A stretch of 64,000 nucleotides of DNA from a virus (Duplodnaviria > Caudoviricetes), in the IMG/VR virus record IMGVR_UViG_3300035520_000607, positions 1-64,000 of that record. The stretch is one strand, 5' to 3'. The notes below the pieces were generated by a model. It saw only the letters and a program-made list of their open reading frames with translations, was not told the DNA's origin and did not search any database. Every line of letters starts with the position of its first letter. Position 1 is the stretch's first letter. The translations under genes were made by a program, and so were the position numbers. Shown piece after piece: positions 11,473-41,612 of the stretch.

Positions 11473-12168
11473 TTATTTCTCCATCTCTATAACTTCATCT
11501 AATAAGCAGCGGAAACCGTCGCTTAGGCTTCTATTAACATGATAATGAGCGAACCACCAATGGTCGAAAGTGATTCTGCTTTTCAATATATCTAAATATT
11601 CTTCACTTATATGACCTATTTTAGATTGATCTAGTCCAGGTATTTGAATTAAATAAACTGAATTATCTTTAAATACTGAATAAGGACAACAGTGAGTAAA
11701 TACATAGTCATAATGAGTTTCTGCGGGGATGCTCATTATAAAATCTTTATCTACTCTCTCATCAGCCCACCAACTTAGACCTTCAACTCTAAAAGCTCGA
11801 TCTATAGAATCAGCTCCGCCGCATACTAATACTTTTCTATTATTTAACATATATTCTCCATTAGGTAAATATATTATATGATTAGATAAATGTACCATTC
11901 CATTCTCATCTCTTGAAGTTGCTTTATATTCATTTAAAATATCATAGTTTTCATGATTACCTGCAATAAACATTAAAGAAGCTCCATTGCATTCATTTTC
12001 AAATAATTCAATATTTTTTTCTAAATCTTTTTTACCATTTCTCCAAGCAATTCCGCAATCGCCTAAGATAAGAATAGAGTCTCCTTCTCCTAAATCAAAT
12101 TTATGAATAAATTCAATTACTGGCATTATATCTCCATGTATATCTCCTCGAACAAATATTCTTCCCAT
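11473..12168 (-). CDS. Calcineurin-like metallophosphoesterase
   Basis: GDIHG, LGD, GNHE, THCCP, AHYH motifs. Confidence 0.9.
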   Translation of the reverse strand: MGRIFVRGDIHGDIMPVIEFIHKFDLGEGDSILILGDCGIAWRNGKKDLEKNIELFENECNGASLMFIAGNHENYDILNEYKATSRDENGMVHLSNHIIYLPNGEYMLNNRKVLVCGGADSIDRAFRVEGLSWWADERVDKDFIMSIPAETHYDYVFTHCCPYSVFKDNSVYLIQIPGLDQSKIGHISEEYLDILKSRITFDHWWFAHYHVNRSLSDGFRCLLDEVIEMEK

Positions 12169-12250: not shown

Positions 12251-13771
12251 TTATCTTATTTCTTTATATCTATCACTACCTAGGATACTCATCATCATAT
12301 CTAGACCTGTTTTTCCAGAAAGGATTGTTTTAAAAATAATAGGACTGCATCCGCTTACATAAGACACTTTTTTATTACTAGCATCTTGTAAGATAATATC
12401 ATTTTCAGCTGAAACATTCCAATAAATTAATTTTGGCATTTCTAAACCTTCAGCTCTCCATTCTTCTTCAATATTTTCCATTTCAGTTCTAGTTTGAGCT
12501 TCAGAATGCCAATTACTTTGACAATCTATTTCCATATCTGAAATTACTATTAAAGTATCTGGTCTATCTGATGCAGGAATATTATTATCTATAATAGTTC
12601 TTTTGATTAAGTCAAAAGCAGCCTTTAAATTGGTATTCTCACATTGATTTCGTTCATATATTCTACGAACTTTATCAACAAAATCTACGCCTTCTATTTC
12701 AATAAATTCAGGTCTTTCTGAGAATGTTATAAAACAATTATTAAATGGCTCTCCAATACGTTCGCCGCAATACATACCTAATGAAATTGCAACATCAATA
12801 GGAGCAGTAGATGTTCTATATGTACTTGTCATACTACCAGAAGTATCTACCATACATAAGGCTTTACATTTTTTACCTTCAAGATAATCGTCTTGATTTT
12901 CCCAGTATTTATTTAGAGTAGCTCTCTCAGTTTCAGTTATATTTATATCATCTTCATAACCATAAATATCTAGTTTAGAAGTTACTCCTTTAACTATTTC
13001 ATATGGATAAAGAGTTCCCGCATTTACTTTTGTTTCTTTGTTATTCATAAATGCTTCATATCTTGCGGCAATTACTTCTTTATGAGCAAAAGCATTTCTA
13101 TATATTAAACCTGCTTTTGATGGTAATTTATCAAATTCAATATCTTCCCATCTATTTTCAGACATTAATTTTTCTACAATATTAATTCTAGTTCTTAATG
13201 CTGATAAAGCTTTTCTATATTCTTTATGAGATAGACCTAAATATTTTCTAGTTTTAGTAGCTAATTCTTTTGATTCTTTAGATGAACAATTTTCGCTCTT
13301 CATCCATTTACCTAATAAAGATACCCCAGTATTTTCACTATTGTTTAAACTCATTAAATCTTTATTAAATTGGCATTTAATAACATCTAAAGCATCTTCT
13401 TCAATAGATGTTCCCATAACACAATATAAATCGTCCCATCTACCATATTCTGCTACATTATCTAAATTGCGGAAAGCTAACTCAGGATATTCTTTTGCTA
13501 GCCAATTAAAACATACTTTGAAGAATCTACGCTCGCCGGCCCCGCCCCTTATATCTCTAAGGTAGAACAAACATTTTAAAGCTAGTTCTTCATTTTCTTC
13601 TAACGCATTTTTAAACAATAGAATACAATCATCGTTGCTACGAGTGCGGTAAGAGCCTCCTAATGCGAACATATCATAAACTTTATCTAATGTTGATTTA
13701 TGAGCTATAGCTCCATTAGTTGTTGTTGTATAATTAGTATCTCTTTTTAAACTATCTACAAATATATTCAT
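12251..13771 (-). CDS. DUF2828-family (TROVE/Ro60-like repeat plus vWA) protein
   Basis: TNGA, FYLRDIRGGAGERRFF, YGRWDDL, LYPYEIV, VDTSGSM (MIDAS), ISDMEID, IYWNV, VSGCSP; start ATG 13771 behind TTGACA..TATAAT promoter. Confidence 0.85.
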   Translation of the reverse strand: MNIFVDSLKRDTNYTTTTNGAIAHKSTLDKVYDMFALGGSYRTRSNDDCILLFKNALEENEELALKCLFYLRDIRGGAGERRFFKVCFNWLAKEYPELAFRNLDNVAEYGRWDDLYCVMGTSIEEDALDVIKCQFNKDLMSLNNSENTGVSLLGKWMKSENCSSKESKELATKTRKYLGLSHKEYRKALSALRTRINIVEKLMSENRWEDIEFDKLPSKAGLIYRNAFAHKEVIAARYEAFMNNKETKVNAGTLYPYEIVKGVTSKLDIYGYEDDINITETERATLNKYWENQDDYLEGKKCKALCMVDTSGSMTSTYRTSTAPIDVAISLGMYCGERIGEPFNNCFITFSERPEFIEIEGVDFVDKVRRIYERNQCENTNLKAAFDLIKRTIIDNNIPASDRPDTLIVISDMEIDCQSNWHSEAQTRTEMENIEEEWRAEGLEMPKLIYWNVSAENDIILQDASNKKVSYVSGCSPIIFKTILSGKTGLDMMMSILGSDRYKEIR

Positions 13772-13967
13772 CTTTAATTCACCTGTTAATCTTATTTCAA
13801 GATTCCTTTCATTTTCTATAATTATTATATCATTATTTTTTATAAATGTCAATGATAAAATAAAAACTGCGGGAAGCCGATCTGCGCGCCTCATACCTTA
13901 ATTGAGATTACAAGCTGCATAACCGCCTTCCCGCATTTGAAAGGGAATTGATTTAAAAATGAAATCC

Positions 13968-14520: not shown

Positions 14521-14594
14521 TAGGTGTGTATAAAGAGATTCAAACTCTTAATAGTGTGTATCAAGCACTAGTTTTACTATTAAACTATATACAC
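14521..14594 (-). tRNA. Degenerate tRNA-Ile(GAU)-like gene
   Basis: Cloverleaf GTGTATA/TATACAC, D GTTT/AAAC, loop TTGATAC, T AAGAG-TTTGAAT-CTCTT; lacks GG in D loop, C.A pair in anticodon stem, 3' ACCT. Confidence 0.5.
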
Positions 14595-14608
14595 ATAAAA
14601 TAGGGAAA

Positions 14609-14683
14609 TGGTGATCCTGCCGAGATTCGAACTCGGGATACCTCCGTGAAAGGGAGGTGTCTTAACCACTTGACCACAGGACC
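14609..14683 (-). tRNA. tRNA-Glu(UUC)
   Basis: Canonical cloverleaf, loop CTTTCAC, encoded CCA. Confidence 0.95.
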
Positions 14684-14686
14684 ATT

Positions 14687-14761
14687 TGGGGTGAGATAAG
14701 AGTTTCGATCTCCTGTCCTTAGAGCCACGATCTAATATGTTACCATTACACCAATCTCACC
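14687..14761 (-). tRNA. tRNA-His(GUG)
   Basis: G-1:C73, loop TCGTGGC (C33), atypical T loop, CCA. Confidence 0.85.
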
Positions 14762-14764
14762 ATA

Positions 14765-14859
14765 TGGCACGCCCCCAAGGGCTTGAACCTTGACCCGCGG
14801 GTTTGGAGCCCGCTACCCGAATTTTGAAGATTCGTGTGCTACCATTACACTAAGGGCGT
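14765..14859 (-). tRNA. tRNA-Trp(UCA) opal-decoding, with a second Trp(CCA) anticodon arm in the variable position
   Basis: ACGCCCT/GGGGCGT acceptor, G73, CCA; arm 1 CGAAT-CTTCAAA-ATTCG; arm 2 GCGGG-CTCCAAA-CCCGC; T arm CAAGG-TTCAAGC-CCTTG. Confidence 0.85.
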
Positions 14860-14928
14860 ATAATAATATAATCTTTATTTATTACATTATTATTATATAA
14901 TATTTTTATTTAAAAATCAATAATAAGA

Positions 14929-15868: not shown

Positions 15869-15943
15869 TGGCAGGGGCGCTAGAACTCGAATCCAGATAC
15901 CTAGTTTTGGAGACTAGGGTCCTAACCATTAGACGACACCCCT
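15869..15943 (-). tRNA. tRNA-Trp(CCA)
   Basis: Canonical cloverleaf, loop CTCCAAA, G73, CCA. Confidence 0.95.
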
Positions 15944-16919: not shown

Positions 16920-16997
16920 TGGAGCGAGTAGTAGGGACTTAAACCCTCATCTTAAGCTTGGACAGCTTGTGTTCTTACCAAATTAAACTATACCCGC
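16920..16997 (-). tRNA. tRNA-Gly(UCC), atypical
   Basis: GCGGGTA/TACTCGC, U73, CCA; loop TGTCCAA (G33); imperfect T arm. Confidence 0.75.
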
Positions 16998-17089
16998 ATA
17001 TGAAAATATTTATAAGCAAATTTTTTTTAGTATATAGACTATTTGCGTTACCCAAGTACTACCACGTGGAGGTTGTCTATTTAGTACTC

Positions 17090-17162
17090 TGCCGAAAACA
17101 GGAATCGAACCCGTAACCTTTTCATTACAAGTGAATTGCGCTACCAATTGCGCCATTTCGGC
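17090..17162 (-). tRNA. tRNA-Thr(UGU), CCA not encoded
   Basis: Cloverleaf, loop CTTGTAA. Confidence 0.92.
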
Positions 17163-17167
17163 ATATG

Positions 17168-17792: not shown

Positions 17793-18232
17793 TGGTGGAG
17801 CTGCGGGGGCTTGAACCCCGGTCCTGAAACTACAATTATATTAGAAATCTCATTCTTACATTACAAGTTTTATCCTATTTATAGGAGTCAGAGTGACGAT
17901 TCGATCCCTACCTCATTATGTTCACTCACGTTCAGAGAGGGCTTCTATATTAAATTAATCACAATAGCAAATCATATAGAAGAAAAATTTACTATGGGTA
18001 ATCTTTGCGGTTAATACGACTGCATTTTCCCTGATTACTTACTGGTACTAATGTAGAAGTTACTTAGCTTTTAATTAAGCAAAAGCTACGCAATTAGATG
18101 CGAATAAAGATTTAACCTTATTAGTAATTTTTGTTAAAATGTTGTTATTTATTTTTTATTGCCTTTTAAGTATCTGCCTACTACTTGTATTCTAATACTT
18201 TATAATTTCAGTCGAAACCATATTTCAACCCC
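17793..18232 (-). ncRNA. ssrA: tmRNA
   Basis: 5' GGGGTTG...TTCGAC, 3' T arm and CAGCTCCACCA with G3.U70; internal tag frame ...NNNILTKITNKVKSLFASNCVAFA-TAA (stop 18075-18077). Confidence 0.93.
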
Positions 18233-20410: not shown

Positions 20411-20944
20411 TTATTTTGCTTTTCCTCATCTTAAGACATCAACATCTACATTTTGAACCCATAAACTAGCAGCTTCTGAATTACTACTTGTTAATAAGTC
20501 TAATTTATTACCTTTAATAGCTCCGCCTCGATCTAAAACAATAGCAATAATACTACCAGTTTTATAATCATTTAATCTTAATATTGTATAAAAAGGATAT
20601 TTCTTACTTGCGGCAACTATTCTAACTTGCCCATATTCACTATCATTATAATAAATAGTATTTCTTACATCATATCCACTTGCGGTGATGCCGCTACATC
20701 CTTTACAATCTGGACCATAATGCGTAAGGTATCCTGTAAAATGGTTACTCTTAGCTGTTGTCGTTGTTATCTTTTTCTTAGTAGTAGTAGTAGTAGTTTG
20801 CGTGGTTGTCGGTTGTTCCTCCACATAGACTGTCTCTTCGGATGTTTGATCGGCCTCCACGCATTTTATAGTTTCTCAACTTGATGTTTTAAGAGGTATA
20901 AAACTTATTAATATTAACAGTATCCCTAATAAACATTTTTTCAT
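20411..20944 (-). CDS. Secreted 3D-domain (cell-wall lytic transglycosylase-like) protein, two TGA=Trp
   Basis: Reading TGA 20876-20878 as Trp adds signal peptide MKKCLLGILLILISF; T-rich linker; YGPDC.GC, TASG, DRGGAIKGNKLDL; ends VLR-W-GKAK. Confidence 0.85.
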
Positions 20945-36023: not shown

Positions 36024-36908
36024 TCGATTTAACAGGACAAAAATTTGGAAAATGAACTGTTATAAAAAAAGACTTAGATAGAACAAGTAGCAAAACTTAT
36101 TGGCTATGCAATTGTGATTGCGGAACTAAAAATGCTAGTGTTGAAAGTTGAAAATTAAGAAGCGGTAACTCTAAATCCTGTGGATGTTTAATGAGGACTC
36201 CAGATTTAAGAACTGGAGAAAAATTTGGATTATTGACAGTTATAAAAAAAAATTGATACTAAAAATTATTTATGCAAGTGTGAGTGCGGCAAAATAAAAA
36301 CTGTTACTAAAAGCCATTTGAAAAATGGACATACAAAGTCTTGTGGATGTTTGACTCGTAAAAAAAGTGAAGAAAAGATGCTTAACAAAAGATTTGGTAA
36401 ATTGACTGTTGTAAAAGATAGTGGAGAAAGGGATTATAAACAAAATATTTTATGAGAATGTCAATGCGATTGTGGAAATAAAGTTTTAGCAAATACTGAT
36501 ATTTTAAATAAAGGAGAAAAAATTTCTTGTGGATGCTTAAAGCAGTCTAAAGGAGAATATTTCATTGAAAGGATCTTAAAAGAAAATAATATAAAATATG
36601 AAAAAGAAAAATCTTTAATAAAAAACTACCCTTTATTAAGGTTTGATTTTTATATTAATAAGCAATACATTATTGAATTCGACGGGAAACAACACTTTCT
36701 TTGTAGTAATAATGGATGAAACAATAAAGAGCATTTTGAAAAAACTAGAAAAAATGATATTATAAAAAATAAATGATGCAAAGATAATAACATTCCACTT
36801 ATCAGGATACCATATACTCATTTAGAAGAGGTGTGTATAGAAGACTTATTATTAGAAACAAGTAAATTTATTTATAAAGGAGAAGAGTACTATGAAAGAA
36901 TTAATTAG
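36011..36908 (+). mobile_element. Free-standing endonuclease gene (CxCxCG/SCGC repeats plus Vsr/DUF559-like nuclease), 5 TGA=Trp and one frameshift at A9 run 36244-36252
   Basis: MTKVIDLTGQKFGK-W-TV...WLCNCDCG...SCGC x3; SKGE..I..IL, LRFDFYI, IEFDGKQH, DIIKNK-W-CKDNNIPLIRIPY; absent from ORF track. Confidence 0.8.
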
Positions 36909-39420: not shown

Positions 39421-41612
39421 ATGTGAATATTTTTTATAATTATTTTGTTCATTTTAAGCTTAGTTATTTTTTATAAAACTTATAAATTATCACAAAGTAT
39501 AAAAATTATTGAAAATAATAACAATGCAATTAAAATTGAAAGAAAAAAATTAGAGTCAGAGAACAAAAATATACAAAAAGAAATAGATGTAAAAAAATCT
39601 TCATTAGATGCTATTCAAGCCTCATTAGAAAAATTAAAAGAAACATCATGCAAATCATTTGAAGAATATACAAATTTACTTCAATATCAATATCAACAAG
39701 AAGAAAAAGAGTATGACAATGCAATAGACGCTTTAAGACATAGCTATCAACAGTTACAAGATAAATTAAGTGCGGAAATGGGTGAAGCGCGCGAAGATCT
39801 AGAAAAAGTTCGTTCAACGAGAGCCGCCGCAATTCAAGCACAATTAAAAGAACAAGAAATAAAAGATCAACAATCTTTCTATTGCCCTCAAGTGCCTGAA
39901 GACGAGCTTAATGATGCTAGGGCTCTCCGCGCAATAGAATATAAACTTAATAACCCAAGAGTATTAAGAATGCTGATATGGCAAACTTACTATCAAAAGC
40001 CAATTAATCAAGTATGCGCAAATATTTTAGGAGGCGCAACCGCAGTTAAATGTGGAATTTATAAAATAACAAATCAAATTGATGGAATGGTGTATATAGG
40101 TCAAACGGTCAATTAATCGGCCGATGAAAAACTTTACTTACTAGCTGGTAGGGGTTATCTTTTAAGATAGCTAACGAGGAAGGAAAATTTAAAAAATTTT
40201 ATAATCTCGTGGGAAAATTTGGTTAATCCATCCTTTATAAAAATAACATACAATGAAGGGATAAAAATATTTTATAAAGGAGTTAGATATTATGAAAAAA
40301 ATTAATATTAATGATACTACAGTAATAACAGGTATATATTTAATTAAATATCCAAATAGCAAAGTCTATATTGGGCAAGCACAAAATATTCATTTACGAA
40401 TATTAGAACACAATAGTAGAGCTAAAAATAATAGACGCGGAGATGGCAAAAAACCTCAACTATGTGATAGTAAAATACGAAAATATTTTCCTGATGGAGT
40501 AAAAGAATATTATATTTTAGAAGAATGTTTAATAGATAAACTTGATGAGAGAGAAAAGTATTGAATTAATTTATATGATGCACTAAATAAAGAGAAAGGG
40601 TATAATTTTTTAGACAAAGGAGATGTATCTGGACGCAGGGGCGTTGATAATGCCAATGCTTCTTTGACAAAAGAGCAATTAGGGAAAATTATAGATTTAT
40701 TATTAAATCATTATGAGCTTTCTTATAGAGATATTGCTCAACAAGTTGGGACGTCTTTAAGAGTAGTACAAAATATTTCTTGGGGAAAAAGTTATATTAA
40801 TGATAATTTATCTTATCCATTAAGGAACAATATACATAATTTTGCAAAGAAAGATAAAGTAACAGATTATTTTAATTCTGAAGTGTTTTTAATTAATTTA
40901 AAAGAAGATTTAAAATATAGCTGGTGGCTTGCTATAGAAACAGATTTAGTCAATAAATATAAGATACCTCTAAATATTTTAAGAGAAATAAACCATGGAG
41001 AAAAATTCAGTGAAATAGGAGATTATACTTATCCCATAAGAAATAAAAATATAAGAAACAGATATAATTTATCCAAAGAGGATATTATAAATCTATTAAA
41101 TGATTTAAAGAATACTGACATTTCTATGACTGAATTAGGAAAAAAATATGGCTTTGGAAGAGCTGCAATTTCAAACATTAACAAAGGTTTAGCTTATCCA
41201 ATAAAAGGATATAACTATCCTGCTAGATTAACCAAATAACCTGTATCGACTATTCCCTAAGCCTTCTGGGCAGGGAAGTAGGGCTACTATTAGCACGTAG
41301 CAGCATTTTAGGAAACGAAGTGCTTTAAATGCCGAAATGGTTTCCTTTAATTATATAATTAAAGTAAGAAATAGTCAAAGCGATATCGCAACCCGCTGAA
41401 AAAATCATGCTAAGTGCGGATTGGGGATAGATACTCCCGCAGGAAATAAGCTTTATAAAGCTATGCAAGAAGTTGGTCTAGAGAACTTCTCTTTTGAATT
41501 ATTAGAAGAATGTTCAAAAGATGAATTAAATGAGAAAGAAAAATATTATATTGAATTATATCAATCTTATGAATTCGGATATAACTCAAACGCTGGAATA
41601 AAAAAGAATTAG
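39421..41612 (+). CDS. Membrane-anchored coiled-coil protein with C-terminal GIY-YIG domain; spliced exons 39421-40109 and 41381-41612, TGA=Trp at 39424 and 41397
   Basis: Splicing restores CGIYKITN...YIGQTV|DIATR-W-KNHAKCG...LYKAM...NFSFELLEEC...E..YI..Y...GYN. Confidence 0.8.
40110..41380 (+). mobile_element. Group I intron
   Basis: 5' exon ends in U with P1 CGGT/GCCG (U.G); P7 GACTAT (about 41249)/ATAGTC (41371); terminal G; in-frame exon joining. Confidence 0.85.
40292..41239 (+). CDS. Intron-encoded GIY-YIG homing endonuclease with HTH repeats (TGA=Trp at 40562)
   Basis: GIY...VYIGQA..I..R..EH; EREKY-W-INLYD....GYN joins two track ORFs in frame. Confidence 0.85.

Follow-up and report, generated by a model that had tools for sequence, protein, structure and literature searches.

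The DNA analysed here (the window) is the first 64 kb, positions 1 to 64,000, of a 123.6-kb IMG/VR virus record that is estimated to be 83% complete. It encodes a tRNA with two anticodon-type hairpins: one next to the D stem with the anticodon UCA, and a second, between the first and the T arm, whose loop presents the CCA anticodon of tRNA-Trp. The same layout recurs in about 100 distinct sequences. Comparing them, we favor, on balance, the view that this is a functional phage tRNA that reads UGA as Trp and whose spare arm presents the native CCA loop to the tryptophanyl-tRNA synthetase (TrpRS) of the host.

The gene, a Trp-type opal suppressor by its features, lies on the (-) strand at 14765-14859 and is 95 nt long including its encoded CCA; sequence, ARAGORN, Rfam, the predicted fold, and an alignment of family members (A1, described below) all contribute to this assignment. 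All of its parts are on the (-) strand. The acceptor stem has 7 bp, ACGCCCU x GGGGCGU, with one U-G pair among them; its 5' strand at 14853-14859 pairs with 14769-14775, and all seven pairs covary in the family. The 3' end of the tRNA (14765-14775) consists of the 3' strand of this stem (14769-14775), the discriminator G73 at 14768, and the encoded CCA at 14765-14767. The D arm (14836-14850) is class I and Trp-like, with a 4-bp stem GUGU/GCAC and a 7-nt loop AAUGGUA, and the T arm is CAAGG-UUCAAGC-CCUUG (14776-14792). Between the D and T arms lie hairpin 1, the decoding anticodon arm CGAAU-CUUCAAA-AUUCG (14818-14834), and hairpin 2, an extra arm resembling the anticodon arm of tRNA-Trp, GCGGG-CUCCAAA-CCCGC (14797-14813). 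A 5' linker, GGUA (14814-14817; 3-7 nt among relatives), joins the two hairpins. A 3' linker, GGGU (14793-14796; 3-4 nt in relatives), follows hairpin 2; it reads NGGU in 82 of 93 relatives and is like the short variable loop of a normal tRNA-Trp. The triplet CCA is absent from the decoding arm, which has UCA there, and is found only in the extra hairpin (14806-14804). The first pair of the acceptor stem is A1-U72, an A-U pair in 30 of the 33 A1 family members, and all 33 have G73.

The Rfam tRNA model (RF00005) scores the gene at 48.2 bits, compared with a gathering score of 29, and both hairpins are present in its minimum-energy fold. ARAGORN reports it as a 95-nt 'tRNA-SeC(tca)' at 14765-14859, a label that the program gives to any tca anticodon. 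An earlier note on this DNA had described the same layout from the letters of the window, and on re-reading the sequence its description is correct to the base. The two anticodon modules that it reported, each a perfect 5-bp stem with a 7-nt loop (UCA at 14827-14825, CCA at 14806-14804), are borne out by sequence and fold together. As it had claimed, either module can be deleted with a canonical tRNA left: removing module 1 in silico yields a 74-nt tRNA-Trp(cca), and removing module 2 yields a 73-74-nt tRNA(tca). Its statement that this is the sole UGA-reading tRNA of the window extends to the whole 123.6-kb record, where no other tca tRNA is found, and the separate, ordinary tRNA-Trp(CCA) that it noted is found by ARAGORN and Rfam at 15869-15943 on the (-) strand; this tRNA is 75 nt long and its D arm is unlike that of the two-arm gene. 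The further claim that the gene heads its operon fares less well. It is the first of four adjacent tRNAs, followed directly and in the same orientation by tRNAs for His (GUG, 14690-14760), Glu (14609-14683), and Ile (14523-14594), which together span 14523-14760 (-). A promoter-like site, TTGATT-17 nt-TATAAT (14892-14920, (-)), lies about 33 nt upstream, but it is weak, and this AT-rich region contains about as many such sites as chance predicts (25 found compared with 21.8 expected).

The phage that carries this tRNA uses TGA as a sense codon in a subset of its genes. There are 69 in-frame TGA codons in the called frames of the record; packaging, tail, and lysis-type genes hold about 60. They are abundant in a block on the (-) strand at 64-114 kb, which encodes the large terminase, the portal, virion proteins, Gp10_C baseplate-like proteins, and proteins of 2349 and 2718 aa; the large terminase has four and the tail and baseplate proteins have 3-12 each. 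Among the replication genes at 23-62 kb (+), those for topoisomerase II, NAD ligase, the DnaB-like helicase, the RecJ-like nuclease, DNA polymerase, and NrdD have no in-frame TGA. The exceptions within this block are two homing endonuclease genes on the (+) strand. One encodes an HNH enzyme (36318-36905), with TGA at 36453, 36717, and 36774 inside the domain match; the other encodes a GIY-YIG enzyme (40292-41236), where a PHROG match over residues 16-299 spans the TGA at codon 91 (40562). Another putative user of the suppressor is an L-Ala-D-Glu peptidase-like gene, perhaps a lysin, at 20414-20944 (-); its TGA codons at 20878 and 20428 both fall outside the PHROG match (residues 35-171). The phage also encodes an RNA ligase and a phosphoesterase of the tRNA-repair kind.

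Alignments of the recoded genes point to Trp as the amino acid inserted at TGA. In a codon alignment of the terminase genes of this phage and 10 relatives (50-82% identical), its four TGA sites correspond to TGG or TGA in the relatives, at three sites almost without exception and at the fourth together with aromatic residues; a single Arg appears among the 10 relatives at another of the TGA sites than the one with aromatic residues. Sites with TGG in this phage are in turn TGA in relatives. In an 866-aa tail protein, W is the commonest residue of the homologues at its two alignable TGA sites. The TGA-aligned columns of the terminase and 866-aa tail protein alignments show no Ser, Cys, or Gly pattern. 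From this comparative evidence, it is very probable that the two-arm gene is the Trp opal suppressor of a TGA-recoded phage.

We searched for the two-arm layout in relatives. A first scan of IMG/VR used a pattern of both loops and the T loop, so that the second loop was demanded; of its 42 loci, about 25 are true tRNAs with the same layout. A repeat viral scan specified only the D-arm and the CUUCAAA loop and left loop 2 free. It returned 50 tRNAs, 34 with a long arm and 16 ordinary short ones, and even with loop 2 unspecified all 34 long-arm tRNAs carry the extra loop [C/G]UCCA[A/U]A. In metagenomes, a scan with only the UCA loop and the T arm held constant yielded 68 distinct real tRNAs with a long insert, together with 17 further matches that are not tRNAs. 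The extra loop UCCA[A/U]A is present in 65 of the 68; the other three are ordinary selC tRNA-Sec genes, with an 8-bp acceptor stem and a 6-bp D stem. Nine more two-arm tRNAs came from a scan of one genome per prokaryote species. Their tRNA bodies differ in D arm and acceptor stem from the one described here, and they lie in bins of Coriobacteriia, Clostridiales, and Bacteroides. One member sits on an isolate scaffold, that of Bacteroides neonati MS4, beside a terminase fragment. BLAST searches of the GenBank phages in INPHARED gave at most 52% coverage of a two-arm tRNA by any record, so that none holds a full-length member; no cultured phage in that collection therefore carries a two-arm tRNA.

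That this layout recurs in about 100 distinct sequences, and that every helix among them shows compensatory changes, is more than chance would produce. In A1, which comprises 33 distinct viral members, 98.6% of cells hold standard pairs and all five helices contain changes on both sides of a pair. None of 500 shuffles reaches the observed covariation values, and no slid register comes near them. Four of the five pairs of hairpin 1 covary and the fifth, U31-A39, is invariant; in the stem of hairpin 2, four of five pairs covary as well. When all loci are pooled, the unique cores number 93 and carry 59 distinct hairpin-2 stems. Across these 59 stems the loop is held as N-U-C-C-A-A/U-A: CUCCAAA occurs in 51 cores, GUCCAAA in 34, UUCCAAA in five, and GUCCAUA in three, and U-C-C-A and the final A are invariant in about 100 sequences. 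The stem of hairpin 2 drifts and its loop does not, a pattern that indicates purifying selection on the sequence of loop 2.

The extra arm is tied to the UCA suppressor anticodon. The same D-arm with a CCA anticodon is found in 120 phage tRNA-Trp genes, of which ARAGORN recognizes 117, all of them 71-75 nt long. None of these 117 tRNA-Trp(CCA) genes has the long arm, compared with 31 of the 47 recognized UCA tRNAs with the same D-arm (93-97 nt). Among phage tRNA genes that share this D-arm, then, a CCA decoding arm is never combined with a long extra arm.

Amber suppressors show a parallel design. Our IMG/VR scans also revealed Gln-type CUA tRNAs, with G73 and either U1-A72 or a mismatch at 1-72, that carry an extra hairpin. 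The 7-nt loops of these hairpins (CUCUGAA, UUCUGAA, CUUUGAA, UUUUGAU) contain CUG or UUG, the Gln anticodons. Their stems are short, 3-5 bp, and covary (TCC/GGA, TGC/GCA, CAC/GTG, GCC/GGC, ACC/GGT). In a sample for which only the CUA arm and the T loop were fixed and already-fetched sequences were excluded, 71 tRNAs were short and 24 were long. Judged by eye, about 16-18 of these 24 have a Gln-anticodon loop, and the others have what look like Ser-, Leu-, or Tyr-type arms. A control with the same stem context and a CUG anticodon gave only three matches, all short. Like the tRNA studied here, the amber Gln suppressors thus combine a decoding arm that bears a suppressor anticodon with an extra arm that bears the cognate sense loop; they differ in their Gln-type body and in the shorter extra stem of 3-5 bp. 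As far as we have searched, this amber design has no description in the literature. In two independent systems, then, the extra loop corresponds to the amino acid that the stop codon encodes, and this is the strongest argument that a synthetase reads it. The match is evidence, too, against a decoy for nucleases or a simple relic.

Which synthetase could charge the two-arm tRNA? We found no gene of the TrpRS/TyrRS family (class Ib, PF00579) in the 50 viral records with one- or two-arm UCA tRNAs, including the present one; 14 of these 50 records are at least 90% complete, and the same PF00579 search was positive in 14 of 14 control genomes. Given that this phage has no TrpRS of its own, the host TrpRS would have to charge the tRNA, and a phage enzyme cannot explain why the arm is present in some of the 50 records and absent from others. 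In the structure of E. coli TrpRS with its tRNA, C35 and A36 are read base-specifically and C34 is subject only to size selection; the authors conclude that bacterial TrpRS need not tell C34 from U34 (PMC12135181). Of 31 phage tRNA(UCA) tested in another study, 13 were analyzed by mass spectrometry, and in E. coli extract all 13 of them inserted Trp (10.1101/2025.10.30.685624); B. subtilis tRNA-Trp(UCA) works with its own TrpRS, as cited in PMC2965240. Tolerance of U34 by TrpRS fits the charging of UCA tRNAs with Trp, yet it also means that the extra arm is not strictly required. Likewise, 16 of the 50 related UCA tRNAs lack the arm, so it is not strictly needed for Trp charging.

The earlier note had proposed that the UCA arm reads UGA and that the CCA arm secures charging by the host TrpRS. 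Decoding as Trp holds up; the charging role, as the best comparative fit, is a conditional reading. In this model the extra arm would offer the host TrpRS the native C34-C35-A36 loop and so raise the affinity or specificity of the enzyme for a tRNA whose real anticodon is altered and whose U34 may be modified. Hairpin 1 would decode on the ribosome. Two geometries are conceivable: the extra arm may act as a long variable arm that docks on the dimeric TrpRS, or it may stack in the place of hairpin 1 during charging. The division of labor between the hairpins is suggested by their features. Hairpin 1 occupies the canonical position next to the D stem and keeps C32 and the invariant U31-A39 pair. 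In hairpin 2, on the other hand, position 32 is G in about 40% of members and the closing pair is mismatched in some, features that are unusual for a loop needed on the ribosome; these differences argue that hairpin 1 is the decoding arm and hairpin 2 a recognition element. Two points weigh against a handle for TrpRS. A variable arm would leave the tRNA core far from the anticodon position, a difficulty for contact with the anticodon-binding domain, and U33, A37, and A38 are fixed too, which contacts with TrpRS alone would not explain. Taking these together, we give a handle for the host TrpRS roughly an even chance of being right; it is the best-supported mechanism. With slightly less confidence than that, we suggest that copying the original anticodon loop into an extra arm that is read by a host synthetase (TrpRS for UGA, a Gln-charging enzyme for UAG) may be a general answer of phages to the problem of suppressor-tRNA identity.

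The extra arm could instead be selected for a reader other than TrpRS, such as a loop-modification enzyme like MiaA, EF-Tu or the ribosome through a tuning effect, or a nuclease or tRNA-sensing defense against which the arm acts as a decoy or shield. MiaA needs A36-A37-A38 in a 7-nt loop, and U33, A37 (nearly), and A38 are fixed in the extra loop besides CCA, so that the whole canonical loop shape is kept. The tolerance of TrpRS for U34 (PMC12135181) and the tRNA-repair enzymes of the phage are also compatible with such a reader. We nevertheless regard this explanation as unlikely. The extra loop corresponds to the assigned amino acid in two suppressor families (CCA for Trp, CUG/UUG for Gln), which points to a synthetase, whereas a decoy or general tuning element needs no amino-acid match and would not be expected in suppressors only, as the absence of the arm from all 117 CCA tRNAs suggests it to be. 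The same match in two independent families disfavors the decoy for anticodon nucleases that the earlier note had put forward.

Another reading, to which we give somewhat less credence still, is that the tRNA is bistable: around a five-way junction, either hairpin could stack under the D stem, so that a CCA conformer would be charged, and might read UGG, and a UCA conformer would read UGA. This overlaps with the handle for TrpRS, of which it forms one of the two geometries. The earlier note had also raised refolding or processing of the arms as a possible gate on UGA readthrough. Taken together, hairpin 2, the NGGU after it, and the T arm have exactly the appearance of a normal tRNA-Trp 3' half, a canonical tRNA is left after deletion of either module, and the 5' linker, at 3-7 nt, is flexible. 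BLAST of one family member (L018) matches ordinary tRNA-Trp as 3' halves at positions 50-96 and as 5' halves at 6-40, which means that either hairpin can count as the insert. This architecture would, however, amount to a hairpin inserted between positions 26 and 27, and we know of no tRNA with one there. Hairpin 2 also often has G32 or a mismatched closing pair, and in the amber suppressors the extra stem of only 3-5 bp does not make a full-length anticodon arm.

A functionless leftover is improbable. In this scenario, a tandem duplication of the anticodon arm freed one copy to become UCA and the other simply persisted. Both modules do share the layout A, stem, loop, stem, GGU, and the 5' linker GGUA resembles the 3' linker GGGU in the subfamily of the window, which fits an origin by duplication. 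But a relic does not account for 59 compensated hairpin-2 stems set against an unchanging U-C-C-A and final A in about 100 sequences, nor for the presence of the layout, by origin or by spread, on different tRNA bodies and also in amber suppressors of the Gln type.

We consider it very improbable that the gene is a tRNA-Sec, a serine-accepting class II or allo-tRNA (with UGA read as Sec or Ser), or an assembly chimera of two tRNAs, despite the ARAGORN label tRNA-SeC and despite G73 and the long extra arm, two features that SerRS uses (Mukai et al., PMC5389517): its 7/5 branch and 4-bp D stem with a 7-nt loop differ from those of bacterial tRNA-Sec, which has an 8/5 branch and a 6-bp D stem with a 4-nt loop, and from the 8/4 or 9/3 branch that allo-tRNAs require according to the same paper, true selC genes from the metagenome scan look quite different, the class I D arm and the 4-nt linkers flanking the extra arm (3-7 and 3-4 nt in relatives) are unlike the phage's own tRNA-Ser, and the layout is common to about 100 independent contigs from many samples. 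The concern about SerRS in particular is answered by the TGA sites, which correspond to Trp, TGG, or aromatic residues in the alignments but in no case to Ser or Cys.

Compared with known opal suppressors, the decoding half of this system is conventional. Classical tRNA-Trp opal suppressors and the tRNA-Trp(UCA) of Mollicutes are class I tRNAs of 74-76 nt with a variable loop of 4-5 nt, and they are charged by bacterial-type TrpRS. Like the tRNA described here, they have a Trp body, G73, and UCA and read UGA as Trp; to our knowledge, none of them has a second hairpin. Class II tRNAs (Ser, Leu, bacterial Tyr, Sec) use a long variable arm as an identity element (Giege and Eriani 2023, PMC9976931). 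They share with the two-arm tRNA an extra helix between the anticodon and T arms that is a possible handle for a synthetase. In class II tRNAs, however, the size and orientation of the arm matter and its loop does not, whereas in the two-arm family the stem is unconstrained and the loop stays a fixed copy of the cognate anticodon loop. The two-arm tRNA also differs from class II in its class I body and in the long linkers on either side of the arm. There are precedents for mimicry of an anticodon loop outside tRNA. The operator in the thrS mRNA of E. coli contains an anticodon-loop-like hairpin to which the matching synthetase binds through its anticodon-binding domain. The tRNA-like element of HIV-1 contains an anticodon-loop mimic that is bound by LysRS (PMC5113203). 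These mimics reside in an mRNA or a viral genome and serve to regulate or recruit, whereas the mimic described here lies inside a tRNA and would aid its own charging.

The phage itself resembles the TGA-to-Trp recoded gut and rumen phages of Borges et al. (10.1101/2021.08.26.457843), an example of which are the ~127-kb 'Agate' phages. Like the present phage, those phages are large and low in GC and have TGA aligned with Trp in the terminase; they also encode their own suppressor tRNA, usually without a TrpRS, and charging by the host is presumed. The present phage follows the same pattern, with recoding in structural and lysis genes and the standard code in replication genes. In Borges et al., the structure of the suppressor tRNA is left undescribed, and the terms 'anticodon' and 'variable arm' do not occur in that sense. 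The relevant parts of Borges 2021, Kienbeck 2024, and Seki 2025 make no mention of a second anticodon-type arm. Nor did our searches find the two-arm architecture in the literature on two-anticodon, extra-arm, and suppressor tRNAs, including the relevant parts of Mukai 2017 and of a 2026 study of bacterial tRNAs whose anticodon stem has 4 bp. The TGA recoding system is known, and the two-arm tRNA appears to be undescribed.

How a host synthetase charges a tRNA with an altered anticodon is an open point, one stated explicitly by Borges et al. (10.1101/2021.08.26.457843). A conserved second hairpin that is linked to suppressors and matched to the amino acid, Trp or Gln, suggests a concrete and testable mechanism of charging. 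For annotation, the ARAGORN label 'tRNA-SeC' means that two-arm genes can be missed or misnamed in phages. If the mechanism is true, it could also provide a natural template, or design rule, for engineered suppressor tRNAs that are efficiently charged. It would also represent a new kind of tRNA identity element, in which the signals for decoding and for charging are physically separate within one tRNA.

The replication block of the phage uses the standard code except for two mobile genes lodged inside it: an HNH homing endonuclease gene with three in-frame TGA codons (36318-36905, + strand) and a GIY-YIG homing endonuclease gene with one (40292-41236, + strand). Because these mobile genes carry in-frame TGA, they depend on the suppressor tRNA, the two-arm tRNA(UCA) that reads UGA.

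The two-arm tRNA is also found in phages whose terminase genes are not recoded. Two close relatives (terminase 77-82% identical), loci L432 (record G010) and L437 (record G008), both carry the two-arm tRNA; TGA is absent from the terminase genes of both. In this they resemble the standard-code relative with a newly gained suppressor that Borges et al. (10.1101/2021.08.26.457843) describe. The two-arm design is shared with Gln-type amber suppressor tRNAs (CUA) recovered in the IMG/VR scans, in which the loop of the extra hairpin carries one of the two Gln anticodons, CUG or UUG (L586:1546-1593; also L572, L624, L627, L538, and other IMG/VR loci).

The tRNA region of the phage also contains an OLE-like RNA (Rfam RF01071; 16697-16935, - strand; 105.6 bits, E 7.5e-28); the match is strong but partial, spanning model positions 283-595 of 616. 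To our knowledge, OLE RNAs have been described from anaerobic or extremophilic Firmicutes and none from phages. Adjoining it is a tRNA at 16923-16997 (- strand; Rfam 45.9 bits) that is absent from the ARAGORN calls, as is a tRNA-His (GUG) at 14690-14760 (- strand; 50.6 bits), in which G-1 is encoded and position 33 is, unusually, a C. A tmRNA gene flanked by tRNA-Ser and tRNA-Ala (17793-18232, - strand) is likewise not among the ARAGORN calls; it spans the whole Rfam model and scores 51.8 bits, where the gathering score is 47. A weak match to an HDV-like ribozyme (RF02682; 17033-17089, - strand; 24.7 bits, E 0.15) begins where tRNA-Thr (17089-17163) has its 3' end, the same placement reported for the 'theta' ribozymes of gut phages (PMC10879173).

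Near the tRNA array lie genes for an RNA ligase (PF09414; 24147-25400, + strand), a metallophosphoesterase (11476-12168, - strand), and a 547-aa DUF2828/DUF7788 protein with the PHROG label 'RNA-binding protein' (12254-13894, - strand); together, these may constitute an RNA repair set.

Finally, the cultured isolate Bacteroides neonati MS4 has a two-arm tRNA(UCA) in its genome (L227:2950-3043, - strand, on scaffold NZ_HG726020.1). This tRNA adjoins a terminase fragment with an in-frame TGA, followed by a transposase gene; the locus is probably a prophage remnant and may offer a culturable handle for experiments.
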